A DNA stretch of 64,000 nucleotides from Massalongia carnosa. Lineage: Eukaryota. Below, piece after piece: positions 4,144 through 64,000 of this stretch. Made by a program: the position numbers and the translations under genes. The notes under the pieces were generated by a model that was given only the letters and a program-made list of their open reading frames with translations, had not been told where the DNA came from and did not search any database. The first letter of the stretch is position 1; the number at the start of each line of letters is the position of its first letter. The stretch spans positions 1,240,001 through 1,304,000 of the forward strand of contig OZ287069.1 in NCBI GenBank assembly GCA_965645245.1. Direction: 5' to 3'.

Positions 4144-6973
4144 CCCAAGGACCAAAGACCACCTATCGAAACACAAGTACCGGAACTTTTGATACTCTAT
4201 AACTTTCACAGTCAATTGAACATCTCTTTCTCAGTCATTTGAGCTCCTCCAGAGCAAAAACGGACTCAGATTGAGTTTAGGAGAGCTCTAGCAAAGCTCC
4301 AACAGAGATTTTCTGCTGGTCGCACGCGACAGACGTGATAAAGCGCGCTCAAGAAGTTATAAAAAACAACAAATACCAACAATATCACCAAAAATCGCTC
4401 TTTTTTCTCACTTTCTTCTGTTCTGTTGTCGCATTACCCTCAATTATTAACTACAAGAATTATCTACAAAAAATATCTACTGTCGCGGTACTGTACAACA
4501 ACTGTCGCGACGACCAACTTTTTTGAAGTTCATTTCTCATTTAAGGTTACAAATTTTTACAGTATATTTCACGTATAATTTCTGCATATACCATTTTAGG
4601 CTTTATCGATCTCAATTGAACGGCCGGTCAACAGATCACTGAAAAGAAGGGGAAAAACGTCTGGAATAGGATTATACCAAAGATCCTATTTCAGATTAAT
4701 CAGAATAGGAAGTCTCTTATTATCTTACCTTGCCTTAGATCTATTTTTATCGCAAAAAAGCAAAAAAAACTTTCATTATTTTCAACTATTGTAGTGTCTG
4801 GTAAAGGGTTAAATAAGATTTACTGCCTAAGCGAGGAACGGTCTATTTTAACTCGATTAGGATTTATTTGACGAGTTATTGTCATATAAATAGGGATAGG
4901 AAAGCAAGAGTCGTTAGACCTGTAAATTGGTGTAAATTTCTATTCTGATTAGTACGTCCGGGGAACATCAGAATAAATTATTTGGTGGTGATAAAAGGGA
5001 TATTGAAAAGGCATATCGATTTATTTATTAAATCATTTTCAATCCGGTACTCCCTAGGACTCGACGAATTATATCGAGAGCCTCCCCGGGAACACCCCTA
5101 AGCACTCCTCAAAACCCTCCCCAAATGGAATCTCCGGGGCTCTCGTCAGTAGGACTTATAAAAAAATCGCCTGTACTTGACGAGACTATGGATCAATCAC
5201 AAGAATATTCGTCCGCCCCGACTACGCCGACCCCAAAAGCAACCAAATTCCTATCTGGACAATTTACTACCAATCTACCCATGCCATCGTTAAATTCTAA
5301 TATAGAATTAAGCCCGCCTATCAAACGTAACAAACGAAAAACATTCGACGAACGAGTAGAGGAAAGCTAAGAAGCAATCAATCGAGCACAATCGATTTGA
5401 TTACTCAAAACGGCTAAAACTGCGTTATTGAAGTCATTTGTCTTAGATCAAAATCCAGAAACAGCAATGGTCATTGATAATGTCAATTCCTTATTGACAA
5501 AAAAATCAATTAATATAAAAACAACACTAGACATGATGAATTGGAAATTGGACAAGGTAATTGATCAGACTAGTAATCGAACCTCAGAAACATCGCGAAA
5601 ATCGACTCGGGTTCAACAAGTCAATACGACTGAAAATCCAAATAAAGTCGTCAACACGAACGCATGAAAGGAAACCGCCGGGGTTACGAGTACAAAGGTC
5701 AATAACACGCCTCCATCCTGTAGTCAAATGCTTGGAAAAGAAACTGCGAATTCCGAAAATTGGACCACTGTTTCCAGATCGAAAAATTCGAGTCAAACCT
5801 CGAACAAATTCGACAAAACCGACGAATTAAATGCAATCAAACTCAGACGACTGATAATTACACCAAAAATTCAAATCGGCGATATCGACTCATTGAAACT
5901 TCGAGATCAAATCAACGCGCAATTCAGCAATGCGAAGTTAGATATCGTAATCAACACGGTAACACGGAGTAAAAATGGGGAAAAATTGACGATACATAGA
6001 TGGGTTATAAAGGGTTGATTTATTTGTAATATAGAAACATATCCTAAAATAAATCACGTTTACTGCAAATTGAATCGAGCCCACGCCTGAACAACAAGAA
6101 ACACAAGTACCGCAACTTTTGATACACTATAACTTTAACAGTCAATTGAGCCTCTATTTCTCAGTCATTTGCGCTCCTCCAGAGTTAAAACGCTCACAGA
6201 TTGAGTGTAGGAGAGCTCTAGCAAAGCTCCAGCAGAGTTTTTCTGCTGGTCGCACGCGACCGACGTGATAAAGCGCGCTCTAGAAGTTGGAAAAAACAAC
6301 AGATACCAACAACCTCACCAAAAATCGCTCTTTTTTCTTGTTTTCTTCTGTTCTGTTGTCGCATGACCTTCAATTATTACTATAAAAATTATCTACAAAA
6401 ATTATCTACTCTCGCGGGACTGTACAACAACTGTCGCGACGTCAGAGTCTTCTAAAGTTCATTCCTCATTTAAGGTTACGGGAACTTCCGCAAGCACAAA
6501 TTTTCATAGCATATTTCACGTATAATTTTTGCACATTCCATTTTCGGCTTTATAGATCTTCGTTGAACGGCCGGTCAACAGATCACTGAAAAGAAGGGGA
6601 AAAACGTCTGGAATAGGATTATACCAAAGGTCCTGTTTCAGATTAATCAGAATAGGAAGTCTCCTATTGTCTTACATTGCATCAAAATTTATCTTTATTG
6701 AAAAAAGCAAAAAAAAAACTTTCATTATTTTCACCTATTGTAGTGTCTGGTAAAGGGTTAAATTAGACTTACTGCCTTAGCGAGGAACGGTCTATTTTAA
6801 CCCGATTAGGATTTATTTGACGCGTTATAGTCAAATAAATAGGGATAGGAAAGAAAGAGTCATTTGACCAGTAAACAAACAGGTGTAAATTCTATTCTGA
6901 CTAGTACGTCCGGGGAAAGTCAGAATAAATTATTTGGTGGCGATAAAAGGGATATTGCAAAGGCAAAAACACT

Positions 6974-8632
6974 ATGCTCAATCGAAGATTTAACCCGATA
7001 GGTCATAGACCAAATCGATTGATACCAACAACTCCTCCCCCAGGCCCCCCTCCACAACATCTATGGGTCCCCCCGAGTACTCCCCCGTGCCCCCCCCGAA
7101 CCGACTCCCCCACGCCATCTTCGGTAGCGATAATTGGGAGCAACCCCCTAACCGTAGAATCCACGGAGGCCATGGACCAAACGCGAGAATTTTCGTCCGC
7201 ACCGTCCACACCCACCCCAAAAACGAAACCTTTTGTCGCGCCATCTGGTGAATTCAGTACCAATCTGCCCATGCCATCATTGAATTCTGATATTCGACTG
7301 AGTCCACCAATTAAACGCAACAAAAGACGAACATTTGACGAACATTCGATTGAGAGTCAAGAAGTCATCAATCGATCAAAATCGATTCAACTATTGAATA
7401 CGGCAAAAAATGCATTATTAGAGTCATTCGTAATAGATCAAAACCCCGAAACGGCTATGGTCATCGATCACGTCAATTCTCTACTGGCAAAGAAATCGAT
7501 CAAGCAAAAAGCAACGTTAGAAATGATTGATTGGAAATTGAATAGGGTGCTAGAACAAACTAGCCAAATTCCAGAAACAAAGAGACAATCGGTGCATCCT
7601 GTACAGACAAAATCGAAGGGAAATTCAAATGGAAATTCGAATTTGACTCAAAACGTCAACCCAGAAATTCGGAGCGAAACCGCCGGAGTCCCAGGGCCGC
7701 AGGTCAACGATACAGCTAGAACATGGAGCCAAATGCTCGGAAAAGCGACTGTCAATTCCGAAAATTGGACTACCGTTCCTCGATCCAAAAAAACAAACAA
7801 GAACAACAACAATAATTCGAATGCGAACAAATTCGATAATACTGACGATTTCAAGGCGATCAAATCTCGACGATTGATAATCACACCGAAAGCTCAAATC
7901 GGCGATATCGATTCACTGTTGCTTCGAAACCAAATCAATTCGCTTTTTAAAGACGCGAAATTGACTATCGTTGTTAACACGGTCGAAAAGTCCAAAACGG
8001 ATCAAAACATCGTTCTGACTACTAGTCCTGATAACACTGCTGAAGATTTATTGAACAATAAATCAATATGGGAGCATTTATTCGACCCACGAACAGTTCG
8101 AAAGGACGAATCGTGGTTCAAAGTTGTCGCACACGGTGTAAATATTGCAACATTTGATGAAAACATGCAATATTTGCAAGACGAAATTCAAAAGTTCAAT
8201 TCGAACATGCAATTATGCGATGTTCCCAGATGGCTAGCACGTGATCGTCATAACAAGATCAAATCATCCGTTGTTTTGACATTCAATGATCGAAATATGG
8301 CCTTGAACGCGTTAAAAGGAGTCAATATCGCGGGCCGACATTGTGACACGGAAATATTTACCTCCGTTCGTCCAAACACACAATGCATTAATTGTCAAAA
8401 ATTTGGACACAAGCATTATCAATGCAAAAGTCAAGCGAAATGCAGCATATGTGCGCAAAACCATGAAACACGCAATCATGAATGCACAACATGCAAGTCA
8501 AAAATTGCTTGTGCACACGCCGTCGTCAAATGCGCGAATTGCAACAAGAATCATCAATCCAATGATGAAAATTGTGAAATGGTTATATCGTTAAATGTTC
8601 GAAAATCGACTGACGAATTAGCCGCTTTGTAA
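6974..8632 (+). CDS. LINE ORF1 (gag-like nucleic-acid-binding protein; Pro-rich N-terminus, C-terminal Cys/His knuckles)
   Basis: 552 aa open frame with CINCQKFGHKHYQC, CSICAQNH…C and CANCNKNH…C, as in Tad1-clade ORF1. Confidence 0.93.
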   Translation: MLNRRFNPIGHRPNRLIPTTPPPGPPPQHLWVPPSTPPCPPRTDSPTPSSVAIIGSNPLTVESTEAMDQTREFSSAPSTPTPKTKPFVAPSGEFSTNLPMPSLNSDIRLSPPIKRNKRRTFDEHSIESQEVINRSKSIQLLNTAKNALLESFVIDQNPETAMVIDHVNSLLAKKSIKQKATLEMIDWKLNRVLEQTSQIPETKRQSVHPVQTKSKGNSNGNSNLTQNVNPEIRSETAGVPGPQVNDTARTWSQMLGKATVNSENWTTVPRSKKTNKNNNNNSNANKFDNTDDFKAIKSRRLIITPKAQIGDIDSLLLRNQINSLFKDAKLTIVVNTVEKSKTDQNIVLTTSPDNTAEDLLNNKSIWEHLFDPRTVRKDESWFKVVAHGVNIATFDENMQYLQDEIQKFNSNMQLCDVPRWLARDRHNKIKSSVVLTFNDRNMALNALKGVNIAGRHCDTEIFTSVRPNTQCINCQKFGHKHYQCKSQAKCSICAQNHETRNHECTTCKSKIACAHAVVKCANCNKNHQSNDENCEMVISLNVRKSTDELAAL

Positions 8633-11600
8633 TGGCAGGACAGCATTCGTTGACAAACATCGAAAATACACAAAATGTTAAATTTATTCAACATAATTGT
8701 GCAAAGTCAACGAATGCAATGATATCGTGTTTGGAATATGCTTTATCAAATCAAATTGATATTGTTTTGTTTCAGGAACCATGGACACGAGATCAAAAAA
8801 CAATATCACATCCGTCATTTACATGTATTATGCCAAAAATAGCGACTTATCGCTCGAGAGTAGCTATATTTGTCACAAATGGCAATTCCAAACTGCAATG
8901 CACGCCTAGAACGGATCTTATTGACGATTCCGATATGCAAATTATTGAAATTACAATTGATGAAGTTCGAAAAGTGCAGATTTTCAATATTTATAACGAA
9001 AAAAGTCAAAGTGATCGAGAAACATACACGATCGATCGACTTTTAATCCAATTACAACCAAAATCAACTGATCAATTCGTCATCTGTGGAGATTTCAATG
9101 CACATCATAACTGGTGGAATTCGAAAATTCAACAAGCAATTCGATCAGAAAATCTTGTCAAATGGTTGAAATTAAACAGGTGTAGCTTGATAAACACACC
9201 TGACTTATGTACATACTGCGCCCATTCTGGAAGTTCTTCATCTGTTATTGATTTAACTTTTGCAAATTCTAAAATCGAAAATGCAATTACAAATTGGTCA
9301 ATCGATGAAAACGCAGTCACAGGTTCAGATCATGAAGTCATCCGATTTGAACTAATCGCATCTTTCAAAAACTTGACGTCACATGCAACCGCATTATCGA
9401 ATAAATACAATTGCAATAAAGCTGATTGGAATAAATTCGCGAAGTATCTAGACGAAAATTCAACCATCTATGAATCACAAGTTCAAAGTTTATTGAATAA
9501 TCATCAATTCGACGAATCAGCGATATATTTGCAAAACATTATCAAAAACGCGGCTGAAATGTTTATTCCGAAAACGAAAATTTGTGCAAAATCGAAAAAT
9601 TGGTGGTCGCATGATTTAACTGAACTTCGAAAAACCATGTGCAGACATCGTCGAGAATGGAAGAATTATCCGTCCGATTTTAGTCATCGGACGTTTAAAC
9701 ATAGTCGAATCGAGTATTTTCATGCAATTCGAAAAGCAAAACAACAAACCTGGTTGACTTTTCTAGAAAATGCAGCGAATAAAGACGTGTTTACCGCGTA
9801 TAAATATACTAAACCGCGCATATTCGAAAAAATACCGCCGATTCTACATGAAAACAAGCTAAATGTTCAGTTTGATGACAAATGCGATGCATTTGTGTCA
9901 GCAATGTATACAAAAAACCCATTTATTGACGATAATGAGGAAGATTTATCAAATCAAGACAGCGTAAATGATGATAATTGGCCAGATTTGACCGAAAACG
10001 AGTTGAAAAATGCGATTAGTTTATTTAATCCGAAGAAAGCATGTGGACCTGATGCAATCAATTTTACAATTGTTCAAAAATCGTTTCAATCGTTGAAAAA
10101 CGTGTTTTTCATGATTTATTCGAAATTCATTCGAATCGGTTATCACCCGTTATGCTGGCGGACAGGACTCGGTGCAGTTCTGAAAAAACCTAATAAATCG
10201 GACTATTCGTTTCCAAAATCATATCGAATTATCACATTATTAAATTGTCTTGGTAAAATTGCTGAGAAAATCGTTGCAAATCGACTAGCCTACTTCGGCG
10301 AAAATTCGAATTTACTCGATATCGAACAGATGGGCGGACGCAAAAATCATTCTGCAATTGACGCAGTAATGAACGTTGTTCATGATATTGAAATTGCAAA
10401 TAGAAATAAAAACGTCTTATCATGTTTATTACTCGATGTCAAAGGCGCATTTGACTTTGTCTCGATTAATCAACTGCTAAATGTTATGAAAAAGCTGAAA
10501 TTATCTCGCATAATAATTCAATGGGTCAAGCATTTCATGACAAAGCGATCGATCAATTTGATATTTGATGAAAATTTAAGCAAAACATATTATGTCGAAT
10601 CAGGAATTCCACAAGGCTCACCAATCTCGCCTATTCTATTTCTGATTTACATTCGTCACTTGTTTCCGAAAATACGAATGAAATTCAATGCACATTCTCC
10701 CAGTTTTATTGACGATGTTGCAATATATGTCGAAAATAAAACTGCAAAACAGAATTGCAAAGAAATCGAAATCATAGTCAAAACGGCCTTTGATTGGGCC
10801 GCATCGAATAATATCAAATTTGATGACGATAAATCCGAGCTGATTCACTTCGAAAAGACAAGAAATGTATCGAAAGACACATTGGAATTACCAAACGGGA
10901 CAGTACTAGAACCGAAAAATGTAGTCAAATGGTTGGGCGTCTGGTTAGACCGAAAACTAAATTTCAAAAAACACGTCGAAACGCGGATCTCTTCTGCGAA
11001 TCGATCGTTTTTTGCAATTCAGAATTTGATGAAATCCGAATGGGGTCTGAAACCGACCGCATGCAGACAGCTCTATATGTCATGCATTATTCCTATTTCG
11101 GACTACGGCTCAGAAATTTGGTATAATGGTCAAAAGAAATATGAAAAACTATTTCAGAACCTACAAAATCAAATGATTCGAAAGATTTTAGGAACTTTCA
11201 AAACCACACCTATTCAGGCGATGGAAATTGAATCACATGTTTTACCAGTTAAACTTCGATTATTAATGAAAAATCAAAAATACGCAATTCGATTATTGAA
11301 GATTGCCGAAAATAACCCTATTTGTCAAAGAATTCCAAACACATATTCGATAAAATTCGAAAATATCGGTTTTGACACAAGTTTATGGAACAACAAATAT
11401 GCCGAATGGAACGAAGACGAAAAACAAACAAATAAACGTCATCCTAGTCAGCTTATTCGCGTTCTTCATTCCGTTTCCGATATAGTTCACAAAACTGATG
11501 AATTTGAACAATCAAATCATTTTATTAAACCTTGGAAATCGCCTTGCAAAATCAAATTTCAAATCGAAAATACAAAGGAATCTGCTAAATCAAGTTATTA

Positions 11601-12645
11601 TTCGACCTTATCCAAAATTAAATCAATGAACTCCGATAAATCCCGAGTTTTACTTTATACAGATGGATCGAAAATCGAATTTGCAACGTCTGCAGTCACA
11701 TTTGCGCCAATTATGAGGAATTGGAGTAGTATTATCAATAATTTTGATCGATTTATCGAAAAAGATTGTCTGATCAAGTATCATACGATTTCGAAAAGCT
11801 GGAAATTAAGCAAACAGTCAAGCATTAAAAATGCTGAACTGCATGCAATTTTACAAGCAATGAAATGGGTCTATAAATTGTCTAATACTAATATTTTATC
11901 GAACTTGGAAAAAACGATTTGGATTTTTTCTGATAGTATAAACGCGATAAACGAAATTCAGAACTTGAAAAATCATATTTTCGCAAGACAAATTCGAAAG
12001 CTCGCAAAACGCTTATTTGAAAGCAATTATCAGGTGATTTTGCAATGGGTTCCGAGTCATTCGAATATTACCGAAAACGAAATTGCAGACAAAATAGCAA
12101 AGACGGGCCATAATCAAATCCTAGTCGAGTCCTCGGCTATAACATTTGATTATGTAAAAGATCAAATAAATCAAAATATGCTAACCACATGGACGAATCA
12201 ATGGCAACAATGCAAATCAAAAGGCAAATACTACGAGAAATTCGAAATGAAACCTGGCATATCGAGATTTTATTATTTATCAAACAACTGTTCCAAATTG
12301 ATATTTGCTACTATTATGCAATTAAAATTCGGACACGGCTATTTTCGATCATATTTACATCGATTGAAAGATTATAATTCGTCAAAATGCTCAAATCGAT
12401 GCAATCAACGACAAACGCCAGAACACTTGTTATTGAATTGCATTCACTATTTCGATGAAATTCAAAACATGAAACAAACCATCGATACTACGATCAACTT
12501 GAATATGTTGTTTAATACAAAAATCGGAAATGACATTTTGATTAAATTCATTGTCAATAACAAAATCGCGACTAGAAAATGGATACTAGGTCAGCTTGAT
12601 GACGAGATTTTCGAAACTGGAGGTTGGGGAGAGATCGAACAGTAA
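8632..12645 (+). CDS. LINE ORF2: AP endonuclease, reverse transcriptase, RNase H and C-terminal zinc knuckle
   Basis: 1337 aa. APE motifs QEP, GDFNAHH, IDLT, SDH; RT motifs YRIITLLN, QGSPISP, FIDD, WLG; RNase H motifs YTDGS, AELHAI, FSDS, WVPSH, NEIAD; C-terminal C…C…H…C. Confidence 0.97.
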   Translation: MAGQHSLTNIENTQNVKFIQHNCAKSTNAMISCLEYALSNQIDIVLFQEPWTRDQKTISHPSFTCIMPKIATYRSRVAIFVTNGNSKLQCTPRTDLIDDSDMQIIEITIDEVRKVQIFNIYNEKSQSDRETYTIDRLLIQLQPKSTDQFVICGDFNAHHNWWNSKIQQAIRSENLVKWLKLNRCSLINTPDLCTYCAHSGSSSSVIDLTFANSKIENAITNWSIDENAVTGSDHEVIRFELIASFKNLTSHATALSNKYNCNKADWNKFAKYLDENSTIYESQVQSLLNNHQFDESAIYLQNIIKNAAEMFIPKTKICAKSKNWWSHDLTELRKTMCRHRREWKNYPSDFSHRTFKHSRIEYFHAIRKAKQQTWLTFLENAANKDVFTAYKYTKPRIFEKIPPILHENKLNVQFDDKCDAFVSAMYTKNPFIDDNEEDLSNQDSVNDDNWPDLTENELKNAISLFNPKKACGPDAINFTIVQKSFQSLKNVFFMIYSKFIRIGYHPLCWRTGLGAVLKKPNKSDYSFPKSYRIITLLNCLGKIAEKIVANRLAYFGENSNLLDIEQMGGRKNHSAIDAVMNVVHDIEIANRNKNVLSCLLLDVKGAFDFVSINQLLNVMKKLKLSRIIIQWVKHFMTKRSINLIFDENLSKTYYVESGIPQGSPISPILFLIYIRHLFPKIRMKFNAHSPSFIDDVAIYVENKTAKQNCKEIEIIVKTAFDWAASNNIKFDDDKSELIHFEKTRNVSKDTLELPNGTVLEPKNVVKWLGVWLDRKLNFKKHVETRISSANRSFFAIQNLMKSEWGLKPTACRQLYMSCIIPISDYGSEIWYNGQKKYEKLFQNLQNQMIRKILGTFKTTPIQAMEIESHVLPVKLRLLMKNQKYAIRLLKIAENNPICQRIPNTYSIKFENIGFDTSLWNNKYAEWNEDEKQTNKRHPSQLIRVLHSVSDIVHKTDEFEQSNHFIKPWKSPCKIKFQIENTKESAKSSYYSTLSKIKSMNSDKSRVLLYTDGSKIEFATSAVTFAPIMRNWSSIINNFDRFIEKDCLIKYHTISKSWKLSKQSSIKNAELHAILQAMKWVYKLSNTNILSNLEKTIWIFSDSINAINEIQNLKNHIFARQIRKLAKRLFESNYQVILQWVPSHSNITENEIADKIAKTGHNQILVESSAITFDYVKDQINQNMLTTWTNQWQQCKSKGKYYEKFEMKPGISRFYYLSNNCSKLIFATIMQLKFGHGYFRSYLHRLKDYNSSKCSNRCNQRQTPEHLLLNCIHYFDEIQNMKQTIDTTINLNMLFNTKIGNDILIKFIVNNKIATRKWILGQLDDEIFETGGWGEIEQ

Positions 12646-13215
12646 AATCAGAAACGATTTATGCTGAAACATTCACGAACTTACAAAGACAAATTTTAAA
12701 ATCGATATTCTTCGATTACTATAGGTTGTTACTAACACGGAGTAAAAATGGGGAAAAATTGACAATACATAGATGGGTTATAAAGGGTTGATTTATTTGT
12801 AATATAGAAACATATCCTAAAATAGTTTAGTGTCATAACCTTAGGTTGAATACACTTAATGAATAAATAAAAAAAAAAAAAAAAATATCCTAAAATAGTT
12901 TAGTGTCATAACCTTAGGTTGAATACACTTAATGAATAAATAAATAAAAAAAAGTAATCAACACGGTCGAAAAATCGAAAACCGGTCAGAATATCGTTCT
13001 CGCTACTAGTTCGAAAAACACTGCTGCAGAATTGTTGGAAAACAAATCTATATGGGAACATACGTTCGATGCACAAAGAATTCGAAAAGACGAATCCTGG
13101 ATTAAAGTGATCGCATATGGAGTAAATATTGCAACGTTTGATCAAAATATGCAATATTTGCAAAATGAAATCCAGAAATTCAACCTTAACATGGAATTAT
13201 GCGATTTACCCAGAT

Positions 13216-40271: not shown

Positions 40272-43200
40272 AGGATTGCCCCATCAGCAAAAAGCCAACC
40301 CCCAAAACATCGATACCCTATATTTTGATATACTGAAACTTTCCCAACTTATTCTCCTCATTCTTCTCATTCATTTGAGCCTACCAGAAGCTAAAACCCA
40401 TCAGAATTGGGTACAGGAGAGCTCTTCCACTGCTCCTGCAGAGTTTTCCTCGCGGTCTGTCCGCCCCTTCACCAAAAAGCGCGTCCAAAAAATCTACAAA
40501 ACACAAAAACACCAACAACAACGTCAAAAATCGCTCGATTTTCGATATTTCTTCGGTTTAATTGTCGCATAGATCTCATCTATTATCATAAAAATTATCT
40601 ACAAAATATCATCACTGTCGCGTGACTGTACAACCTGTTCTCGAGACAACAAAACTTCTTGGTGTTCATTTGAAATTTAAGGTTACCGGTACCGTATACA
40701 CTATTCCATTTTGGGTTTTTTCAATTTTCGTTGAACTGCCGACCAAAAATCTGCTGAAACGAAGGGGGAAAACGTCTGAAATAGGGTTAAACCAAAGGCC
40801 CTGTTTCAGGCTAACCAGAATAGGAAGTCTCCTCTCTCTCATTGTACTTGATTTTTATTTCTGGATCAAAAACATTTTTTTAAAAAAAAAAAATTTTCTG
40901 TTCGATCGTAAAATTCTTATTATATTCCATATATCGTAGTGTCAAGGTAAAGAGTTAAATAAGATCTATTGCCTAAGCGAGGAACGGTCTATTTTAACTC
41001 GACTAGGATTTATTTGACTTGTTATTGTCAAATAAATAGGGTTTGGAAAGCAAGAGTCTTTAGACCAGTAAATCGGCGTAAAAACTCTCTATTCTGACTA
41101 TTACGTCCGGGGAACGTCAGAATAAATTATTTGGTGGCGATAAAGGGGATATAGCAAAGGCAACATCGATTTATTTATAAATCCATGTTTAACGCGGTAA
41201 TGAACCGCCGGAATATACCAAGGACATCACCCCCAGCCGGTCCCGCCCCCCTATCGACCCCTTACCCGGCCCCCCCCCGACACTCCCCCGGACCATCTCC
41301 GGTGGCGTTGATAGGGAGCTCTCCCCGTCTTGAACCTATGGATCAAACTCGCGAATATGCATCAGCCCCGTCAACACCGACACCAAAGGCAACGAAATTC
41401 CCATCGGGTCCATTTTCCACTATCTTGCCGATGCCTTCATTGAACTTAAACATTGGATCAAGCCCACCAATCAAACGAAATAAAAGCCGCACATTTGACG
41501 AACATTCGAGAGATAGCCAAGAAGCGATCAATCGGGCAAATTCAATTGAGCTTCTAAAGTCGGCCAAAAAAGCATTATTGCAATCATTTGTACTAGACCA
41601 AAATCCACAAACGGCTATCGTAATTGACAACGTTAATTCGTTGATTTCGAAAAAATCAATCAATTTACAAACATCCTTAGATATGATTAACTATAAAATG
41701 GGCATAGTACTTGATCAAACTAGTTATCTTTCCTCAAAAACGTCACAACAACAAACGACTCCACTACAGAATGGTCCAAAAATCTAAAAACCTGTTGTTA
41801 AATTGAACGAAAATTCAAATATCGAAAATCAGACCATTCGCAAAGGAGCCACCGGGGTCTCTGGTAACAATGTTAGCACAACCGGTACATGGAGTCAAAT
41901 GCTTGGAAAAGCAACCGAAAACTCCGAAAATTGGACTACTATTCAAAGGAAAAGTTCGAATCATAATTCGAACAAAGTCGATCGATTTGATGCAATCAAG
42001 GCCAGACGACTCGTGATTTCACCGAAAAATCCTGACGCTCAAATCGACTCTATGAAGTTGCGTGATCAAATTAACGCGCTATTAAAAAACGCAAATTTAA
42101 ACATCATCGTCAATACTGTTGAAAAGTCCAAAACCGGTCATAATATCGTTCTCACCACTAGCCCTGACAACAATGCCGAAGAATTTTTGAAAAATAAATC
42201 TTCATGGGAACACATTTTCGAATCACAAAGTATTCGAAAAGACGAATCCTGGTTTAAAGTCATAGCACACGGAGTAAATATCTCGTTATTCGATAATAAC
42301 ATGCAATATTTGCAAACCGAAATCGAAAAATACAATTCGAATATGCAACTATGCGATTTACCAAGATGGCTTGCTCGGGATCGTCAAAACAAAGTCACGT
42401 CGTCGGTAGTTTTGACTTTCAATAATCAAAATCAAGCGTCAAACGCGTTAAGAGGCGTGAATATCGCGGGTAGACATTGTGACACGGAAATATTTGCTTC
42501 CGTTCGTCCAAACACGCAATGTATTAATTGTCAGAAATTTGGACATAAGCATTATCAATGCAAAAGTCCGGCAAAATGCAATATATGCGCACAAAGTCAT
42601 GAAACGCATAATCATGAATGCACAACATGCAAGTCTAAAATCGCATGCGCACATGCAATTCTGAAATGCGTCAATTGCAACAAAAATCATCAATCGAACG
42701 ATATAGGTTGCGAAATGTTTATCTCGCTAAATCCTAGAAAATCGAATAATGAATTAATACTTGGTTAATGGCGGGACAACATTCGTTGACAAATAACGAA
42801 AATACACAAAATGTCAAATTTATTCAACATAATTGTGCAAAGTCAACGAATGCAATGATTTCGTGTCTGGAATATGCAGTATTAAATCGTGTTGATATTG
42901 TTTTATTTCAGGAACCATGGACGCGAGATCAAAAAACAATTTCCCATCCGTCATTCACATGTATTATGCCGAAAATAGCGACTTATCGGCCGAGAGTAGC
43001 TATATTCGTTACAAAATGCAATCCAAAATTACAATGCACGCCTAGAACGGATCTTATAAACGATACTGATCTGCAAATTATCGAAATTACAATTGATAAA
43101 GTTCGAAAAGTGCAGATCTTTAACCTTTACAATGAAAAAAGTCTAAACGATCGAGAAACATATACAATCGATCGACTTTTAGTTAAATATCAACCTATAT

Positions 43201-46200: not shown

Positions 46201-47719
46201 TTGAAAACATTGGTTTTGACACTAGTTTATGGAACAACAGATATGCTGAATGGAACGAAGACGAGAAAAAATCGAGTAAACCTCATCCTAGTCAGCTTAT
46301 CCGTATTCTTCATTCCGTTTCGGATATAGTTCACAAAACTGATGAATTCGAATCAGTAAATAATTTCATCAAACCATGGAAGCCGTCTTGTAAAATCAAG
46401 TTCCAAATCGAAAGATCCAAAGAAACAGCAAAGTCAAGTTATTATTCGACTTTATCAAAAATCCAATCAATAAACGCCGATAAATCGCAAATTTTACTAT
46501 ATACCGATGGATCAAAAACCGAGTTTTCAACTTCCGCTGTCACATTTGCACCAATTACGCGAAATTGGAACAATTTCACCGATAACTTCAATCGTTTTAT
46601 CGAAAAAGATTGTCTCCTCAAATATCATACGATTTCGAAAAGCTGGAAATTAAACAAACAGTCAAGCGTTAAAAACGCTGAACTGTATGCGATACTACAA
46701 GCAATAAAATGGGCATACAAATTGACAATTGCGAATATTCTCTTCAATTTGGAAAAAACGATTTGGATTTTTTCCGATAGCATAAACGCGATAAACGAAA
46801 TTCAGAACTTGACAAATCATACTTACGCAAAACAAATTCGAAAATTCTCGAAATGCTTATTAGGAAACAATTATCAGGTGGTTCTACAATGGATTCCTAG
46901 TCATTCGAAAATCGTCGAAAATGAAATTGCAGATAAAGCAGCAAAAGCGGGACATAGTGGAATCCTAATCGAGTCTTCGATAGTAACATTTGATTATGTG
47001 AAGGGTCAAATAAATCGAAATATGTTAGCCACATGGGCGAATTAATGGCAACAATGCAAGTCAAAAGGCAAATACTATGAGAAATTCGAAATGCAGCCGG
47101 GTAAATCGAGTTTTTATTATCTGTCGAATAATTGTTCTAAATTAATATTTGCAACTATTATGCAAATGAAATTCGGACACGGTTATTTTCAATCATATCT
47201 GCACCGATTGAAAGATTATAATTCGTCAAAATGCACAGGGCGCTGCAACGAACGTCAAACGCCAGAACACTTATTGATGAATTGCATACATTATTCAAAT
47301 GAAATCCTAAACATGAAACAAAATATTGATACCACAATTACTTTAAAAATGTTGTTTAATACTAGGATCGGATAATATTTTGATTAAATTTATTGTTGAT
47401 AACAAAATCGCGACTAGAAAATGGATGCTAGGTCAGCTCGATGACGAAAATATCGAAACGGGAGGTTGGGGAGAGATCGAACAGTAAAATTAGAAATGAT
47501 TTATGCTGGAATATTTACGAGCTTTACAAAAACAAATTTTAAAATCGATATTTCGATTACTAAAGGTTGTTACTAACACGGAGTAAAAACGGGGCAATAT
47601 TGACGATACATAGTTGGGTTATAAAGGGTTGATTTATTTGTAAACTAAAACCATATCTTAAAATAGTTTAGTGTCATAACCTTAGGTTGAATACACTTAA
47701 TGAATAAATAAATAAAAAA
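40272..47719 (+). mobile_element. Full-length degenerate LINE (copy F, second subfamily), split by stub G
   Basis: 13-bp TSD tagcgcgtatcag (40259-40271, 47720-47732). ORF1 41185-42768 has one stop; TAATG junction; ORF2 42768-~47487 has stops; A tail present. Confidence 0.94.
43892..44585 (-). mobile_element. 5'-truncated LINE stub (copy G, A-type subfamily) inside ORF2 of copy F
   Basis: 14-bp TSD cagcaaacttggtt (43878-43891, 44586-44599) and poly(T). Confidence 0.94.
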
Positions 47720-50700
47720 TAGCGCGTATCAGGACGCTCATCAGCGTCATCACTCCGCTACGCTTACTGAGGATCTTTCGATAAAGAGATTCGGATTACA
47801 TAAAAACTTCAGCAAATCTGAAAAGAGCCTTATCATTCAAATGCGTACTGAGCGTATTGGCTTGTCGGATTATCTCTTCTCTCGTTGAGTTACTACGTTC
47901 GCTTCACCGGCGTGAAGCTGTGGATGGGCACGCCAGACGCTCAAGCATGTGCTACACAGCTGCCCCATGTTATGATCAACCTAGAGACAAGTCATAGTGA
48001 TGCTAGAAACGAATACAATAAATATGAAGAAGGAAAAAGACAATCGACAACCAGAACCTGCCCCTATATATCCTCTTTTTTTATTTTTTATTTATTCATT
48101 AAGTGTATTCAACCTAAGGTTATGACACTAAACTATTTTAAGATATGGTTTTATTTTACAAATAAATCAACCCTTTATAACCCAACTATCTATCGTCAAT
48201 ATTGCCCCGTTTTTACTTCGTGTTAGTAACAACCATCGATTTTACAATTTGTTTTTGTAAAGCTCGTAAATATTCCAGCATAAATCATTTCTAGTTTTAC
48301 TGTTCGATCTCTCCCCAACCTCCCGTTTCGATATTTTCGTCATCGAGCTGACCTAGCATCCATTTTCTAGTCGCGATTTTGTTATCAACAATAAATTTAA
48401 TCAAAATATTTTTTCCGATCCTAGTATTAAACAACATTTTTAAAGTAATTGTGGTATCGATATTTTGTTTCATGTTTAGGATTTCATTTGAATAATGTAT
48501 GCAATTCATCAATAAGTGTTCTGGCGTTTTACGTTCGTTGCAGCGCCCTGTGCATTTTGACGAATTATAATCTTTCAATCGGTGCAGATATGATCGAAAA
48601 TAACCGTGTCCGAATTTCATTTGCATAATAGTCGCAAATATTAATTTCGAACAAGTATTCGACAGATAATAAAAACTCGATTTCCCCGGCTGCATTTCGA
48701 ATTTCTCATAGTATTTGCCTTTTGACTTGCATTGTTGCCATTGATTCTCCCATGTGGCTAACATATTTCGATTTATTTGACCCTTTACATAATCAAATGT
48801 TATTATCGAAGACTCGACTAGGATTCCACTATGTCCCGCTTTTGCTGCTTTATCTGCAATTTCATTTTCGACGATTTTCGAATGACTAGGAATCCATTGT
48901 AGAACCACCTGATAATTGTTTCCTAATAAGCATTTCGAGAATTTTCGAATTTGTTTTGCGTAAGTATGATTTGTCAAGTTCTGAATTTCGTTTATCGCGT
49001 TTATGCTATCGGAATAAATCCAAATCGTTTTTTCCAAATTGAAGAGAATATTCGCAATTGTCAATTTGTATGCCCATTTTATTGCTTGTAGTATCGCATA
49101 GAGTTCAGCATTTTTAACGCTTGACTGTTTGTTTAATTTCCAGCTTTTCGAAATCGTATGATGTTTGAGGAGACAATCTTTTTCGACAAAACGATTGAAG
49201 TTATCGGTGAAATTGTTCCAATTTCGCATAATTGGTGCAAATGTGACAGCGGAAGTTGAAAACTCGGTTTTTGATCTATCGGTATAGAGTAACATTCGCG
49301 ATTTATCGGCGTTTATTGATTGGATTTTTGATAAGTCGAATAATAACTTGACTTTGCTGTTTCTTTGGATCTTTCGATTTGGAACTTGATTTTACAAGAC
49401 GGCTTCCATGGTTTGATGAAATTATTTACTGATTCGAATTCATCGGTTTTGTGAACTATATCCGAAACGGAATGAAGAATACGGATAAGCTGACTAGGAT
49501 GAGGTTTACTCGATTTTTTCTCGTCTTCGTTCCATTCAGCATATCTGTTGTTCCATAAACTAGTGTCAAAACCGATGTTTTTGAATTTCACAGAATAGGT
49601 ACTGGGAATTCTTTGACAAATAGGATTATTTTCGGCAATCTTCAATAATCGAATTGCGTATTTTTGATTTTTCATCAACAATCGTAGCTTGGCTGGTAAA
49701 ATATGCGATTCAATTCCATCGCCTGAACAGGCGTCGTTTTGAATGTGCCTAAAATCTTTCGAATCATTCGATTTTGCAGATTCTGAAATAGCTTTTCATA
49801 TTTCTTTTGACCGTTATACCAGATTTCTGAGCCATAGTCCGAAATAGGAATAATACATGACAGATAGAGCTGTCTGCATGCAGTTGGCTTTAGTCCCCAT
49901 TCAGACTTCATCAAATTTTGAATTGCGAAAAACGATCGATTTGCAGAAGCAATTCGCGTTTCGCCGTGTTTTTTGTAATTTAGTTTTCGGTCTAACCAGA
50001 CTCCTAACCATTTGACAGAATTTTTCGGTTCTAGTATTGTCCCGTTTAGTAATTGCACTTTGTCTTTTGATGCATTTCTTGACTTTTCGAAGTGAATCAA
50101 CTCAGATTTGTCGTCATCAAATTTGACATTATTCGTTGCGGCCCAATCAAAAGCTGTTTTGACGATAATTTCGATTTCTTTGCAATTCTGTGTGGCAGTT
50201 TTATTTTCGACATATATTGCAACATCTTCTATAAAGCTAGGTGAATGAGCATTGAATTTCATTCGTATTTTCGGAAATAAGTAACGAATATAAATCAGAA
50301 ATAGAATTGGCGAAATAGGTGAACCTTGTGGAATTCCAGATTCGATATAGTACGTTTTGCTTTTGTGTTCATCGAATATCAAATATGTCGATCGTTTTGT
50401 CATAAAATGCTTGACCCATTGAATAACTATGCGAGATAAATGCAGCTTTTTCATAACATTTAGCAATTGATTAATCGAAACAAAGTCAAATGCTCCTTTG
50501 ACATCGAGTAATAGACATGATAAAACGTTTTTGTTTCGGTTTGCGATTTCGATATCATGAACGACGTTCATTACCGCATCGATTGCAGAATGATTTTTCC
50601 GTCCGCCCATTTGTTCGGTATCTAACAAGCTCGAATTTTCGCCGAGGTAGGCTAGTCGATTAGCAACTATTTTCTCCGCAATTTTACCAAGACAATTCAG

Positions 50701-51940
50701 TAAGGTAATAATTCGATATGATTTTGGCAGCGAGTAGTCTGGTTTATTAGGTTTTTTTAAACAGCACCGAGTCCTGTTCGCCAACATAACGGGCTAAGAA
50801 TGATAAAATAGAGTTGACATCTCTCTCCTTCGTGAAGTCTCTATCCCAGTTTGCGTTCATCTCACTGGTGCGTTTTACAGCCCAAGATTATTGATGAATT
50901 CTACGATTGGGGTGAACGACGTCCCTTTCGCCCAGGTCAAACCCAGTTTACTCCTTAAGCATATATCAAGGGCGAGTCTAGCCGTAGCCCATGCGCCGGC
51001 GAACCGACGGGGTCTCGTTACGAGCGAGATAGACATTCCCTGCTCTATATACACCGACATGCGCATACTGTCCTCTCGGGCTATGCAGACGGTCTCCGTA
51101 CGGTGGCCGCCATTGCATACCACGCCTCACGGGTTTTTTACGCCCACTTCGCGTTATTCATAAAGGTCTCCCGTTTATGAACCGACCATGTCTCGCGGGG
51201 ATTTCGACCGCTATGCTCCTGACCAGGCAGTATAGTATCGATTTTCCGTCCCTACTAACCAAAACGAGTCGAGGACAACTCGGAGGGGTGCTCGTTTCAA
51301 ATTCGTCTATTAGCTCAGGGCCTAGACTGTTATCAATTAACGGGTTCCTCGTATATTGCCCTCTTCTTGTCCCAAGGGTGTCCTATTTGATGACTAGGTT
51401 GCCTCCACCATCCCCGGTACGACTCCGGTGCGGGCCGTGTTGCTCACGGTAGCCATCAATCGGATAGTTTTCATAACCCAAATCCCTTGTATCGTGTAGG
51501 GTGTGACCCTACACTATGTGTCTATATGTTTTATTTCTTTCAGCCGGAGGGCTCCGTGTTGTAGACGAAGGAGACCCGTGTGACAGACATAGCTGACCCG
51601 TGTCGTACGTCTTTAGCTCTCAGCCGATGACTCATGAAAGGACTTGAACCTTTAAGAGTATGACTGAACGTTGTTAACGAGGTCTATGAAAATCTTATTA
51701 ACGAGGTCTTCGAGAACAATATTAACGAAGTTCCGCTGAACTCTTTTCATTCGTTTTGTGATCCATCGAGGTCTACCCGTGTCAAATCCACACCATGCCC
51801 GTGTCAAAATGCATCATTTTCAGCTGATGACTGCTAGAAAGGACTTGAACCTCTAAAAATATGTACGCCGATATTAACGGGGTGCAGATCTGTCTTAACG
51901 AGCCCCCGCAGAACCCCCTTCACAGGGACGTGTTATTGAT

Positions 51941-52135
51941 TTGTGATTGTGTTTTTTGTGACTGTGTGTTTTGTGACTGTGTGTTTTGTGACAGTGTGTT
52001 TTGTGACTGTGTGTTTTGTGACTCTGTGTTTTGTGACTGTGTGTTTTTTGACTGTGTGTTTGTGACTGTATGTTTGTGACTGTGTGCTTTGTACAACGTG
52101 TGATTGATGACTATGTGTTTTGTGACTCTGTGTTT
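51941..52135. repeat. 15-bp minisatellite (tgtgttttgtgactg)n within element X
   Basis: Directly visible; a shorter inverse copy lies at ~54210-54340. Confidence 0.92.
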
Positions 52136-52575
52136 TCCTCGATTTTATTTAACAGGCCGGGCCTATTAAATGGGATATTGTTATTCTGCTCCGAGATGGA
52201 GTTTTCTTGAGGTGACAGCATTCGCCCCGGTGCCTTTACGCGTTCTGTTGATCCCAGCTGATGACTGCATGGGGAGACTTGAACTCTCAGGAGCTAGAAC
52301 GCGTGTCGATTGTGCCCGGGTGGGGGATGATGCGGCTCCTTTGGTCCACATCTTCTTCCAGCTGATGACTGCATGAAGGGACTTGAACCCTTAGAAGCAT
52401 GGTGCAGGGACGCGCGCATTCTACCCCCCGGCGGTTGTCCTTCGTATCCTCTTCCGTACGTACGTCTGCGACGCGTGTGAACGCGTTAAATTAGCATTGT
52501 TTTGATGCGAAAAGATAGGAGCAAATCTATGTTTGTCGGTCGCTCCACGGTGAGGCCTTTGGCGTCTCCGTGGTG

Positions 52576-52716
52576 AGGACCGATGGTGTAGAAGGAGGAC
52601 CGATGGTGTAGAAGGAGGACCGATGGTGTAGAAGGAGGAGGACCGATGGTGTAGAAGGAGGAGGACCGATGGTGTAGAAGGAGGAGGACCGATGGTGTAG
52701 AAGGAGGAGGACCGAT
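52576..52716. repeat. 23-bp tandem array (gaggaccgatggtgtagaaggag)n near the 5' end of element X
   Basis: Directly visible; also present at 53634-53760 (inverse) and 62815-62977. Confidence 0.93.
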
Positions 52717-53381
52717 ATATAATAATGTGATAGTAAATGTGATAGTAAATGTGATCCCTATATATCCTCTACTGCGCTAGTACACATGTGGTATAGTCGT
52801 CATGGAACCTTCTAGCAGCTGCGGGAACGAAATCGAAAGCGCCTGCGTGTTCCATCTACGATTGCCCTAGGCGGTGCCGAGTGCCGATGGCGTGCCGTGT
52901 AGAATCGTGGCACCCCAGGTTTGTTAATGGCTGAAGCAACATGTGCAGAGACACCGGAACGACGGATTATCGCCGCCTTCTGACCACCGAAAAGGGTTTA
53001 CGAGCCTCCACTCGCTGGCTTATGCGGACTATTCTACTGACACAGTTTTTCGCTAGCTGTAGAGTGTATTTCTTCCTCCACCTAATTATCGCGTAGTGAT
53101 AGTCACAAACTCTAGATATAACAGAGACAGAAGGTAGTATTTTGATAAGCATGTGCGTCGTAGACGTGGCGCTGGCGAAACGTAGCATTCGCCAAGTAAG
53201 GTCGAGCGATCACGTGAAGGTATACAGATGAAAGATTTTTCCCCTTGATGAGGGTTTTCCATCTTTGAAACTTTGATAGCTTTTCTCGCATGGGTCGGCT
53301 GTAGCTGATGTCACAACGAGTATGAATTTAATAATAATAATACATATTTATTTGCTGCATTTCCTAGAAAAATAAATCAGG

Positions 53382-53633
53382 TTTATTTTTTATTTTTTAT
53401 TTATTCATTAAGTATATTCAACCTAAGGTTATGATACTAAACTTTTCTAGGATATGTTACTATAATACAATTTTTTTATCTTGTATTCATTGAGTGTATT
53501 CAACCTAAGGTTATGACACTAAACAATTTTAGGATATGTTTCTATAATACAAATAAATCAACCCTTTATAACCCATATATGTATGTATCGTCAATTTTTC
53601 CCCGATTTTACTCCGTGTTAGTAACAACCTATA
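53382..53633 (-). mobile_element. Two tandem LINE 3'-end stubs (53382-53470 and 53471-53633)
   Basis: Each has a T tract followed by a variant of attcattaagtgtattcaacctaaggttatga. Confidence 0.85.
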
Positions 53634-54825
53634 TCGGTCCTCCTCCTTCTACGCCATCGGTCCTCCTCCTTCTACACAATCGGTCCTCCTCCTTCTACAC
53701 CATCGGTCCTCCTCCTTCTACACCATCGGTCCTCCTCCTTCTACACCATCGGACCATCGGTTCTCACCACGGAGACGCCAAAGGCCTCACCGTGGGGCGA
53801 CCGTCAAACATATAGATTTGCTTCTATCTCTTCGCATTAAAACAATGCTAATTTAACGCGTTCACACGCGTCGCAGAAGTACGTACGGAAGAGGATACGA
53901 GGGGCCAACCGCCGGGGGTAGAATGCGCGCGTCCCTGCACCATGCTTCTAAGGGTTCAAGTCCCTTCTTGCAATCATCAGATGGAAGAAGATATGGACCA
54001 AAGGAGCCGCATAATCCCCTACCGGGGCACAGTCGACACGCGTTCTAGCTCCTGAGTGTTCAATTCTCCCCATGCAGTCATCAGCTGGAATCAACAGAAC
54101 GGGTAAAGGCACCGGAGTGAATGCTGTCACCTCAAGAACACTCTATCTCGGAGCAGAATAACAATATCCCATTTAATAGGCCCGGCCTGTTAAATAAAAT
54201 CGAGGAAAACAGAGAGTCACAAAACACATTTTTATCAATCACACGTTATACGAAGCATACAGTCACAAAGCACACAGTCACAAAGCACACAGTCACAGGG
54301 CATACAGTCACAAACATACAGTCACAAACACACAGTCACAAATCAATAACACGTCCCTGTGAAGGGGGTTCTGCTGGGGCTCGTTAAGACAGATCTGCGC
54401 CCCGTTAATATCGGAGTACATATTTTTAGAGGTTCAAGTCCTTTCTAGAAGTCATCGGCTGAAAATAACGTATTTTGACACGGGCATGGTGTGGATTTGA
54501 CACGGGTAGACCTCGATGGATCACAAAACGAATGAAAAGAGTTCAGCGGAACTTCGTTAATATTGTTCTCGAAGACCTCGTTAATAAGATTTTCATAGAC
54601 CTCGTTAACAACGTTGGGTCATACTCTTAAAGGTTCAAGTACTTTTATGCAGTCATCGGCTGAGAGCTAAAGACGTACGACACGGGTCAGCTATGACTAT
54701 CACGCGGGTCTCCTTCGTCTACAACACGGAGCCCTCCAGCTGAAAGAAATAAAACATATAGACACATAGTTTAGGGTCACACCCTACACGATAAAAGGGA
54801 TTTGGGTTATGAAAACTATCCGATT
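53630..54825 (+). mobile_element. Element X copy 2 (inverse of 51458-52719), cut at its 3' side by LINE E
   Basis: Colinear reverse-complement match with scattered substitutions and repeat-number changes. Confidence 0.9.
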
Positions 54826-57800: not shown

Positions 57801-58112
57801 TACATTGCTGACACAAACGCATCGCATTTGTGATCGAATTGAACATTTAACTTGTTTTCATATTGAATAGGTTGTATTTTTTCGAACATGCGCGGTTTAG
57901 TGTATTTATAAGCTGTAAATACGTCTTTATTCACTGCGTTTTCGAGGAAAGCCAACCAAGTTTGCTGTTTCGCTTTTCGAAATGCATAAAATTACTCGAT
58001 TCGACTATGTCTAAATGTTTTGATGACTAAAATAGGACGGATTATTCTTCCATTCTCGACGATGTCTACACATGATTTTTCGAAGTCCGGTTAAATCTTG
58101 CGACCACAAATT
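54826..58112 (-). mobile_element. 5'-truncated degenerate LINE (copy E, F-type subfamily)
   Basis: Poly(T), 3' UTR and ORF2 fragments 55270-57955; no TSD found. Confidence 0.92.
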
Positions 58113-58254
58113 TTCCGTATTCTTCATTCCGTTTCGGATATATTTCATAAAACTAATGAATTGGAATCAGTAAATAATTTCATCAAACCATGGAAGCCGT
58201 CTTGTAAAATCAAGTTCCAAATCGAAAGATCAAAAGAAACAGCAAAGTAAAGTT
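58113..58254 (+). mobile_element. Internal LINE ORF2 fragment (F-type) adjoining the gap
   Basis: Matches 46301-46440 (RILHSVSDI…). Confidence 0.8.
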
Positions 58255-58454
58255 NNNNNNNNNNNNNNNNNNNNNNNNNNNNNNNNNNNNNNNNNNNNNN
58301 NNNNNNNNNNNNNNNNNNNNNNNNNNNNNNNNNNNNNNNNNNNNNNNNNNNNNNNNNNNNNNNNNNNNNNNNNNNNNNNNNNNNNNNNNNNNNNNNNNNN
58401 NNNNNNNNNNNNNNNNNNNNNNNNNNNNNNNNNNNNNNNNNNNNNNNNNNNNNN
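58255..58454. other. Assembly gap (200 N)
   Basis: Run of N. Confidence 1.
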
Positions 58455-62788: not shown

Positions 62789-63093
62789 GGTGAGGCCTTT
62801 AGCGTCTCCGTGGGGAGGACCGATGGTCCGATGGTGTAGAAGGAGGAGGACCGATGGTGTAGAAGGAGGAGGACCGATGGTGTAGAAGGAGGAGGACCGA
62901 TGGTGTAGAAGGAGGAGGACCGATGGTGTAGAAGGAGGAGGACCGATGGTGTAGAAGGAGGAGGACCGATGGTGTAGGATAGCAAATATTTATGATGTGA
63001 TAATAATAAAATAATGTAATAGTAAATGTGAGAGTAATTTAAATGATGCGGTAGTGCTTTAATAATATGGTGGTGGTTTAACGGTGCGAGCCT
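62789..63093 (-). mobile_element. Element X copy 3, 5' portion
   Basis: Matches 52549-52755 including the 23-mer array and the taatgt(g/a)atagtaaatgtga motif, and extends further. Confidence 0.85.
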
Positions 63094-63521: not shown

Positions 63522-64000
63522 TTTATTTATTTTTTATTTTTTTTATTTATTCATTAAGTGTATTCAACCTAAGGTTATGACACTAAACTATTTTAGGATA
63601 TGTTTCTATATTACAAATAAATCAACCCTTTATAACCCATCTATGTATTGTCAATTTTTCCCCATTTTTACTTCGTGTTAGTAACAAGCTATAGTAATCG
63701 AAGAATATCGATTTTAAAATTTATCTTTGTAAGTTCGTGAATGTTTCAGCATAAATCGTTTCTGATTTTACTGTTCGATCTCTCCCCAACCTCCAGTTTC
63801 GAAAATCTCGTCATCAAGCTGACCTAGTATCCATTTTCTTGTCGCGATTTTGTTATTGACAATGAATTTAATCAAAATGTCATTTCCGATTTTTGTATTA
63901 AACAACATATTCAAGTTGATCGTAGTATCGATATTTTGTTTCATGTTTAGAATTTCATCGAAATAGTGAATGCAATTCAATAACAAGTGTTCTGGCGTTT
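63522..64000 (-). mobile_element. LINE 3' end (ORF2 C-terminus, 3' UTR, poly(A)); continues beyond the window
   Basis: ORF 63768-63986(-) ends GGWGEIEQ; T tract at the left end. Confidence 0.92.

Follow-up and report, generated by a model that had tools for sequence, protein, structure and literature searches.

The window analysed here is a stretch of 64,000 nucleotides from Massalongia carnosa (GenBank assembly GCA_965645245.1, contig OZ287069.1, positions 1,240,001 to 1,304,000 of the forward strand), and all coordinates below count from its first letter. Between 48062 and 52770 the window carries a 4.7 kb minus-strand insert, in which the 3' part of a long interspersed nuclear element (LINE) is joined directly to a non-coding sequence that we refer to as element X. 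We describe the two parts of this insert, the other copies of X in the window and the X-LINE junctions present in public sequence data, and suggest that the insert is a chimeric retrocopy that probably formed when the reverse transcriptase (RT) of the LINE switched templates.

A composite insert within a single target-site duplication

The insert is bracketed by a perfect 15-bp target-site duplication (TSD), CCCTATATATCCTCT. Both strands of the 64 kb window together contain just two occurrences of this 15-mer, which start at 48062 and 52756. Directly after the left copy, from 48077, comes the reverse complement of the A-rich LINE tail, and the right copy is directly preceded by the end of X at 52755. 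Within the insert, X and the LINE meet with no A run and no filler between them. The chance of a 15/15 repeat lying exactly at both outer ends is ~1e-9 for fixed positions. Simple 5'-truncated copies of the same LINE carry 12-bp TSDs (29685-31946, GAGCTCGGAAAT; 43890-44590, CAGCAAACTTGG), and the 15-bp TSD therefore fits integration by this LINE, and not by a long terminal repeat (LTR) element or a DNA transposon. The single TSD proposed in a first-pass annotation of this DNA is thus borne out, as a pair that is unique in the window and abuts the LINE tail on one side and the end of X on the other. The insert is genuine and went in as a single piece.

Public sequencing data were used to look for related structures. 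A sampled-word search found X or part of it in 9 runs from 7 studies, including a lichen metagenome and a freshwater metagenome. The contigs of four public runs (X1, X2, X3 and X7) were aligned to 47900-53000, and the results given here refer to the 15 of 54 joints, 15 of 330 loose ends and 28 of 13,986 pieces that were listed; summed contig depths were not taken as copy numbers. In run X1, a contig connects 48037 with 52756 by way of 23 letters, which correspond to 48039-48061 with 3 mismatches, and thus presents the flanking repeat with a single TSD copy and no insert. This empty site, seen in one short contig whose shorter side is 30 letters, supports insertion as a single unit without settling it.

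The insertion target itself (47720-48061 and 52771-53385) is covered by many contigs of runs X1 and X3. It is probably another repeat family, with no second copy within the window and no Pfam match in its two longest frames.

The LINE part and its relatives

The LINE part of the insert aligns to positions 10146-12882 of a full-length LINE in the window at 85.9% identity, and to the LINE copy at 54825-57563 at 96.2%. It starts at ORF2 (open reading frame 2) residue ~511 of 1343, and ORF1 and the APE endonuclease are therefore absent from the insert. The first-pass annotation had described this 2.7 kb as RT, RNase H and poly(A) lacking ORF1 and endonuclease, which agrees with the truncation and with the RVT_1 and RNase_H matches (Table 1), except that the tail is A-rich (AATAAATAAAAAATAAAAAA) and not pure poly(A). 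At the other end, the three letters 50791-50793 (CCC in sense) may belong to either the LINE or X.

The full-length LINE at 6098-12882, which we use as the reference, is apparently intact. It encodes an ORF1 protein of 561 amino acids without a Pfam match and an ORF2 protein of 1343 amino acids with APE endonuclease (residues 34-243), RT (526-777) and RNase H (1011-1165) domains. Fragments that are 98-98.6% identical to it (29685-31946, 43890-44590 and 63524-64000) suggest, on sequence grounds, that it was active recently. A second subfamily, here called subfamily B, is ~86% identical to the reference; it comprises 40364-47719, 48077-50793 and 54825-58121 and is the source of the LINE part of the chimera. 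The best named relative of ORF2 comes from the lichen-forming fungus Lasallia pustulata (42% identity), and on this basis the LINE is fungal. LINE proteins of other named ascomycete genera are 24-26% identical to ORF2, and the nearest named relatives of the RT are ascomycete RTs. The LINE may be Tad1-like, an assignment based on the order of its domains (ORF1, then ORF2 with APE, RT and a C-terminal RNase H) rather than on a tree.

Some further features of these LINEs were observed. The copy at 54825-58121 ends 5' in a 144-nt inverted copy (58111-58254) of its own region 56112-56255, with 95% complementarity, directly before a 200-N assembly gap (58255-58454); this is either a 5' inversion of the twin-priming type or an assembly problem. 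Two direct repeats (13216-13653 and 33162-33599, within the regions 12960-13653 and 33162-38246) are 97.5% identical and bounded by LINE sequence, which ends at reference position 8231 and resumes at 8227. This looks like a nest of LTR retrotransposons of ~20 kb that was inserted into an older LINE with a 5-bp TSD. Composition along the window steps sharply, with ~34% G+C in the LINEs and ~46-48% in the LTR-retrotransposon regions.

Sequence content of element X

Positions in X are numbered in the sense of the attached LINE, so that X runs from position 1 at 52755 to position 1962 at 50794. X has a G+C content of ~48% (by base counts), and lacks an open reading frame, a LINE-like tail, terminal repeats and an A run. 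A search with word size 7 and relaxed scoring returned no window similarity beyond 53630-54825 and 62789-62977, in agreement with the earlier statement that X is unlike the LINE and LTR elements of the window. In public data X is multi-copy, and many of the 13,439 contigs of run X1 fall on it. Two metagenome scans gave no loci, one using a 24-mer from the 3' end of X as the query and the other the unit of its 23-bp repeat.

Four reading frames of X gave no Pfam match at E<=1. Across the whole window, ARAGORN found no tRNA gene and Rfam found no family at its gathering score; between 47 and 64 kb at E<=1, the only Rfam match was a chance-level one to a Streptococcus small RNA (E=0.071). Within X there are tandem repeats of 23, 15, 24 and 12 bp, the unit counts of which vary among copies, and a dispersed motif of ~45 nt. 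This motif is present four times in copy 1 and also in copy 2 (at 53941, 54419 and 54620), and in sense reads ...RGGTTCAAGTCCYTTC..GCAGTCATCRGCTG. It resembles a tRNA T arm and acceptor strand, a likeness to which ARAGORN, Rfam and folding lend no support. Predicted RNA folds of the X 3' end and of the four motif copies were no better than those of shuffled sequences (z-scores of -0.08 to +1.33).

Two candidate identities for X were rejected. A CTGATGA box in antisense raised the possibility of a hammerhead, which found no support in Rfam. Telomerase RNA is, in fungi, a non-polyadenylated RNA of ~2 kb; neither strand of X contains a CCCTAA-type template.

Copies 2 and 3 of X are cut on their 3' side

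Both of the partial copies at 53630-54825 and 62789-63093 reported in the first-pass annotation are present, and we refer to them as copies 2 and 3. That annotation had also described their ragged ends as 5' truncations from target-primed reverse transcription (TPRT), and in this it was mistaken. Copies 2 and 3 keep the 5' region of X and are without its 3' region, stopping at X1298 and X207, respectively. Copy 2 stops where the A-rich 3' end of the LINE 54825-58121 begins. Copy 3 is cut at 62788/62789 by an LTR-type end, ...GTGACA; at lower coordinates than this cut lie a Gypsy-type polyprotein frame (58174-62219) and a further ~570 bp, which would be the 3' LTR of that element, with the 5' LTR in or beyond the N gap at 58255-58454. 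The large truncations of both copies are therefore nested insertions on the 3' side, and not TPRT 5' truncations.

The 5' ends of X were then compared. The aligned part of copy 3 (62977-62789) corresponds to X 40-207, and ~113 nt of additional 5' sequence extend up to 63092. Part of this additional sequence aligns with the start of copy 1 with a score of 26, compared to a shuffle maximum of 17, which places the 5' limit of copy 3 at least ~45 nt beyond that of copy 1. The region upstream of copy 2 was considered as a similar extension and rejected (local alignment score 15, shuffle maximum 21). Taken together, the 5' ends of X lie within ~100 nt of each other, with copy 3 at -45 or earlier, copy 1 at 1, a contig of run X2 at ~13 and copy 2 at ~33, as is expected from near-complete copying of one RNA.

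The 5' end of copy 2 abuts a short LINE 3' tail fragment (53386-53629) that lies antisense to it and contains an 82-bp tandem duplication (1.8 units). This fragment could be a nested insertion or a product resembling twin priming, and no clear TSD was found for it.

One end of X is joined to the LINE at several positions

Contigs from public runs contain X joined to the LINE at sites other than that of the window. A 3220-bp contig of run X2 (record 9) follows the LINE part from 48106 to 50703 and then passes directly into X at 50792, with 88 nt less LINE than in the window; the 50703 joint is also present in one short contig of run X1. The X of the run X2 contig leaves the window sequence at 52743 and enters a flank without a match in the window, and the contig therefore represents another locus. 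An 8164-bp contig of run X7 (record 24) contains X from position 169 to its 3' end (50791), and continues in letters unlike the window at that place. The 30 loose letters match 41326-41355 exactly (30/30) on the sense strand, within the ORF1 region of the near-full-length subfamily B LINE, and in this contig X is thus joined to a LINE part far longer than that of the window insert. In run X3, one contig (record 21) has a LINE that continues normally past 50793, as shown by matches at 44960 and 57564.

All three readable 3' junctions of X therefore lead into the LINE in the same orientation, at LINE positions 50793, 50703 and the equivalent of 41326, and the 3' end of X is identical in all three (...CTTAG+CC(C)). 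At each junction a C run of 2-3 nt can be attributed to either partner (Table 1). In the sense strand of the LINE, CC makes up 2.1-3.0% of dinucleotides and CCC 0.07-0.56% of trinucleotides, and the chance of finding CC(C) at all three junctions is ~1e-5. The first-pass annotation had asked whether the junction at 50793 recurs. None of the 28 contig pieces listed out of 13,986 bridges the exact window junction (50793/50794); what does recur is the same X 3' end on the LINE at other positions. We count the X-LINE contigs of the public runs as further copies, and not as independent species.

Splicing was rejected as the joining mechanism, as the LINE sides are without AG acceptors. Short joints in run X1, for example 49937 to 51683, lie at GATC sites or carry GATC letters; they are probable proximity-ligation artefacts and were not included among the junctions.

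Table 1. Coordinates of the composite insert, copies of X, X-LINE junctions and reference LINE in the window
Feature	Position	Strand	Remarks
TSD, left copy (CCCTATATATCCTCT)	48062..48076		abuts the A-rich LINE tail
TSD, right copy	52756..52770		abuts the outer end of X
5'-truncated LINE, subfamily B	48077..50793	-	ORF2 residue ~511 to A-rich 3' tail; ORF in 3 pieces
RT domain of LINE part	49996..50748	-	RVT_1, E=2.9e-34, residues 16-266 of frame 49675-50793
RNase H domain of LINE part	48834..49163	-	RNase_H, E=5.3e-09, residues 77-186 of frame 48297-49391
X copy 1, 1962 nt	50794..52755	-	non-coding 5' part of chimera; sense strand taken to be that of the LINE
X copy 2	53630..54824	+	X ~33-1298, 91-94.5% identical; cut 3' by LINE at 54825
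X copy 3	62789..63092	-	X 5' region to position 207; abuts LINE fragment at 63093
23-bp tandem repeat near X 5' end	52575..52716	-	6.4 units; present in copies 2 and 3 too
15-bp tandem repeat inside X	51940..52136	-	13.2 units in copy 1, 6.1 in copy 2
Dispersed ~45-nt motif with GGTTCAAGTCC	51618-51661, 51818-51863, 52252-52297, 52356-52401		four copies in X
Window junction			chimera CTTAG-CCC-GTTATG; uninterrupted LINE ATCA-CCC-GTTATG
Run X2 junction			chimera CTTAG-CC-TTACTG; uninterrupted LINE ATTA-CC-TTACTG
Run X7 junction			chimera CTTAG-CCC-CGTCTTG; uninterrupted LINE CTCT-CCC-CGTCTTG
X-joined position in near-full-length subfamily B LINE, ORF1 region	41323..41355	+	CCC overlap 41323-41325
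Full-length reference LINE	6098..12882	+	ORF1 6947-8632; ORF2 8614-12645

Comparison with known chimeras

The closest counterpart is the Mixed Interspersed Nuclear Element (MINE) of Magnaporthe grisea (Gogvadze et al., 2007; PMC2104539). In MINE, a full-length 1.1 kb non-coding sequence termed WEIRD is fused directly, and in the same orientation, to 230-5461 nt of the LINE MGL, and the whole is flanked by direct repeats of 10-20 bp. The 31 copies described have 28 different chimerization sites, no solo WEIRD is reported there, and the switch point in the LINE RNA is immediately preceded by a GCC motif. Gogvadze et al. attributed MINE to template switching during LINE reverse transcription, and gave five defining features of such chimeras (PMC2104539). 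Among the features in that account, a 5'-truncated LINE with its own tail, variable truncation sites and flanking repeats are found for the X-LINE insert, as is direct joining; the variability of the truncation site is based on three junctions, two of them from public contigs.

The likeness extends to the ascomycete host and to the kilobase-sized copy of a non-coding RNA of unknown function, joined directly to a 5'-truncated LINE and seen mostly or only in such fusions. It extends further to the variable length of the LINE part (230-5461 nt in MINE; about 2.6, 2.7 and up to ~5.7 kb here), to the size of the TSD (10-20 bp and 15 bp, respectively) and to the use of many sites with a C-rich motif, which is GCC upstream of the switch in MINE and CC/CCC at the overlap here. 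On the other hand, X is ~2 kb long compared to 1.1 kb for WEIRD and has internal tandem repeats of 23, 15 and 24 bp. A C run of 2-3 nt is common to both partners in X-LINE chimeras, whereas the authors of MINE report no microhomology, and the LINE here belongs to another family, as reflected in its 24-26% identity to LINE proteins from other named genera of ascomycetes. For two published WEIRD primers (PMC3978060), the window contains no match at up to 3 mismatches, which, with primers only, is a weak test of homology. The first-pass annotation did not recognise X as a described family. For the sequence of X this holds as far as it was compared, but a chimera of this kind has already been described in MINE.

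Template switching has also been reported for U6-L1 chimeras and for LINEs of other clades, where it was contrasted with twin priming (Doucet et al., 2015; PMC4476161). In the chimeras of small nuclear RNAs (snRNAs) with LINEs in mammals and other vertebrates, RT starts on the LINE RNA and then moves to a non-polyadenylated nuclear RNA, which it enters at the 3' end and copies to the 5' end, so that an RNA copy and a 5'-truncated LINE lie within one TSD (PMC4476161). The partner there is a known snRNA of ~100 nt transcribed by RNA polymerase III (Pol III), while X is ~20 times longer and has no Rfam match. Short interspersed nuclear elements (SINEs) whose 3' tail matches that of a stringent LINE resemble the insert in having a non-coding head followed by LINE 3' sequence and in being mobilised by LINE proteins. 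They differ in having a short LINE tail of fixed extent and a Pol III head, whereas the LINE part here is of kilobase size (at least 2.6 kb) with a variable start, and ARAGORN and Rfam found no tRNA, 7SL or 5S head for X.

Template switching as the probable origin

We propose that the 4.7 kb insert is a bipartite chimeric retrocopy that would derive from one event of TPRT. The LINE endonuclease would have nicked the target, and the LINE RT, starting at the A-rich 3' tail of the LINE RNA, would have copied it as far as ORF2 codon ~511, the extent of the LINE part seen in the insert. The enzyme would then have switched to the 3' end of a separate, non-polyadenylated X RNA of ~2 kb and copied it almost to its 5' end, and integration duplicated the 15 bp of target that now flank the insert. 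A switch of the LINE RT during TPRT, away from LINE RNA and onto the 3' end of X RNA, is the probable explanation, and X would then be a full-length copy of a cellular RNA in LINE orientation. The switch would use the X terminus ...CUUAG(CC/CCC), and it falls at places where the LINE RNA itself has CC or CCC. Either the X RNA would end in ...GCC(C), so that the end of the nascent complementary DNA (cDNA; GG/GGG) could pair with it, or the RT may leave the LINE template right after copying the C run. X-LINE chimeras are recurrent in this fungus, since at least three different positions of the LINE carry an identical X end, and X would therefore have spread, mainly or wholly, by riding on LINE cDNAs, in the manner of WEIRD in MINE.

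The first-pass annotation had offered two readings of X, as a SINE-like parasite that borrows a LINE tail or as an abundant RNA captured through template switching. Of these, the captured RNA is the better supported, because X and a truncated LINE share one TSD, and the X end is constant while the LINE breakpoint varies. A parasite with a fixed LINE tail gains no support, because the junction varies, no head resembling tRNA, 7SL or 5S was found and nothing shows a promoter. The main rival is that copy 1 is a secondary retrocopy. An X-LINE composite that already existed would then have been transcribed, with a promoter lying in X, and its LINE 3' end would have allowed mobilisation in trans, as a true non-autonomous family. 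This would accommodate the multiple copies of X (three in 64 kb, besides the many run X1 contigs), the 50703 junction seen in both runs X1 and X2, and the many positions at which copy 1 differs from the majority-depth contig letter, so that a family consensus exists; MINE chimeras, moreover, are transcribed in Magnaporthe (PMC2104539). However, the window's own junction was not seen again among the pieces listed, the three readable junctions are of three types, and the promoter in X is assumed. As each master copy would itself need template switching, this route adds a step and replaces nothing, and we consider it unlikely.

The sharp ends of X could also be those of an independent mobile element, or a piece of one, that inserts into LINEs at CC(C), with read-through X-LINE transcripts being retrotransposed afterwards. 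The CC(C) at the junctions could then be a target microhomology for priming, and LINE fragments do adjoin the 5' ends of copies 2 and 3 and the X of the run X7 contig. With LINEs making up roughly half of the window, such neighbours are nevertheless to be expected by chance, and the X 5' end of copy 1 abuts the TSD and a non-LINE flank, not upstream LINE. With no ORF, LINE-like tail, terminal repeats or A run, X would have to move with no visible means, which makes this route improbable. Under twin priming, X would be antisense, its copying primed separately on the opposite target strand, and would meet the LINE cDNA head to head. Twin priming explains opposite-orientation snRNA-L1 pairs within one TSD (PMC4476161), and the 23-bp tandem repeat at the outer end of X could be a 3' tail. 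The internal meeting point would, however, be arbitrary in both partners. We reject twin priming, as very improbable, because the internal end of X is constant in the three junctions; its outer end, too, is nearly constant. There is hardly any likelihood that two unrelated neighbouring insertions, or a misassembly, acquired a direct repeat by chance. The insert does lie in a dense repeat nest, 5.5 kb from the 200-N gap, and its joint was bridged by no piece among those listed, but the exact placing of the 15/15 repeat at both outer ends (~1e-9), the empty-site contig and the equivalent LINE-X contigs in other runs all argue against such an accident.

A number of observations weigh against the template-switching model itself. 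The window has only three X copies, one of which keeps the 3' end, and the two additional junctions come from public runs that possibly represent the same organism or the window's own sample. The 50703 junction can formally be explained as an 88-bp deletion of the window form between two CC, and in a further contig of run X3 (record 22) X ends at 50791 and is followed by 82 letters in which the junction partner is not read. The strand, ends and source gene of X are all deduced, and none of the 9 runs that hold X is on record as RNA. Compared as it was to the window, Pfam, Rfam and a tRNA scan, X may still be part of a known element. Finally, the authors of MINE found no microhomology at its junctions, unlike here (PMC2104539).

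X as a possible passenger of LINEs, and implications

Within the template-switching model, X may be more than a bystander cellular RNA. We think it possible, though doubtful, that X is a non-autonomous retroelement that spreads only by being picked up through template switches, and, as tentatively, that its 3' terminus (...GCC/GCCC) would have evolved as an acceptor for LINE cDNA ends in G runs. If so, X would land at the 5' end of truncated LINEs, where it may provide a new promoter, a strategy distinct from the tail mimicry of SINEs. The C-rich chimerization motif of MINE hints that this parasitic strategy may be common to ascomycete LINEs.

The X-LINE insert appears to represent a fungal system, the second besides MINE of Magnaporthe, in which template switching repeatedly joins one specific kilobase-sized non-coding RNA to a LINE. 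Our literature searches found no fungal system of specific RNA-LINE fusion besides MINE, and these searches, together with a term search of a preprint on transposable elements of the Peltigerales, found no report of such chimeras in lichen-associated fungi. For annotation, X is best treated as a 5' module belonging to chimeric LINE copies rather than as an autonomous or SINE family in its own right. The overlap of CC(C) at each of the three junctions provides a testable clue to where a fungal LINE RT leaves its template and which RNA end it accepts, and may also explain the unexplained GCC motif of MINE. Chimeras of this type create new transcribed units and can inactivate genes, and the template switching that forms them is the proposed route by which SINEs gain their LINE-derived tails (PMC4476161).

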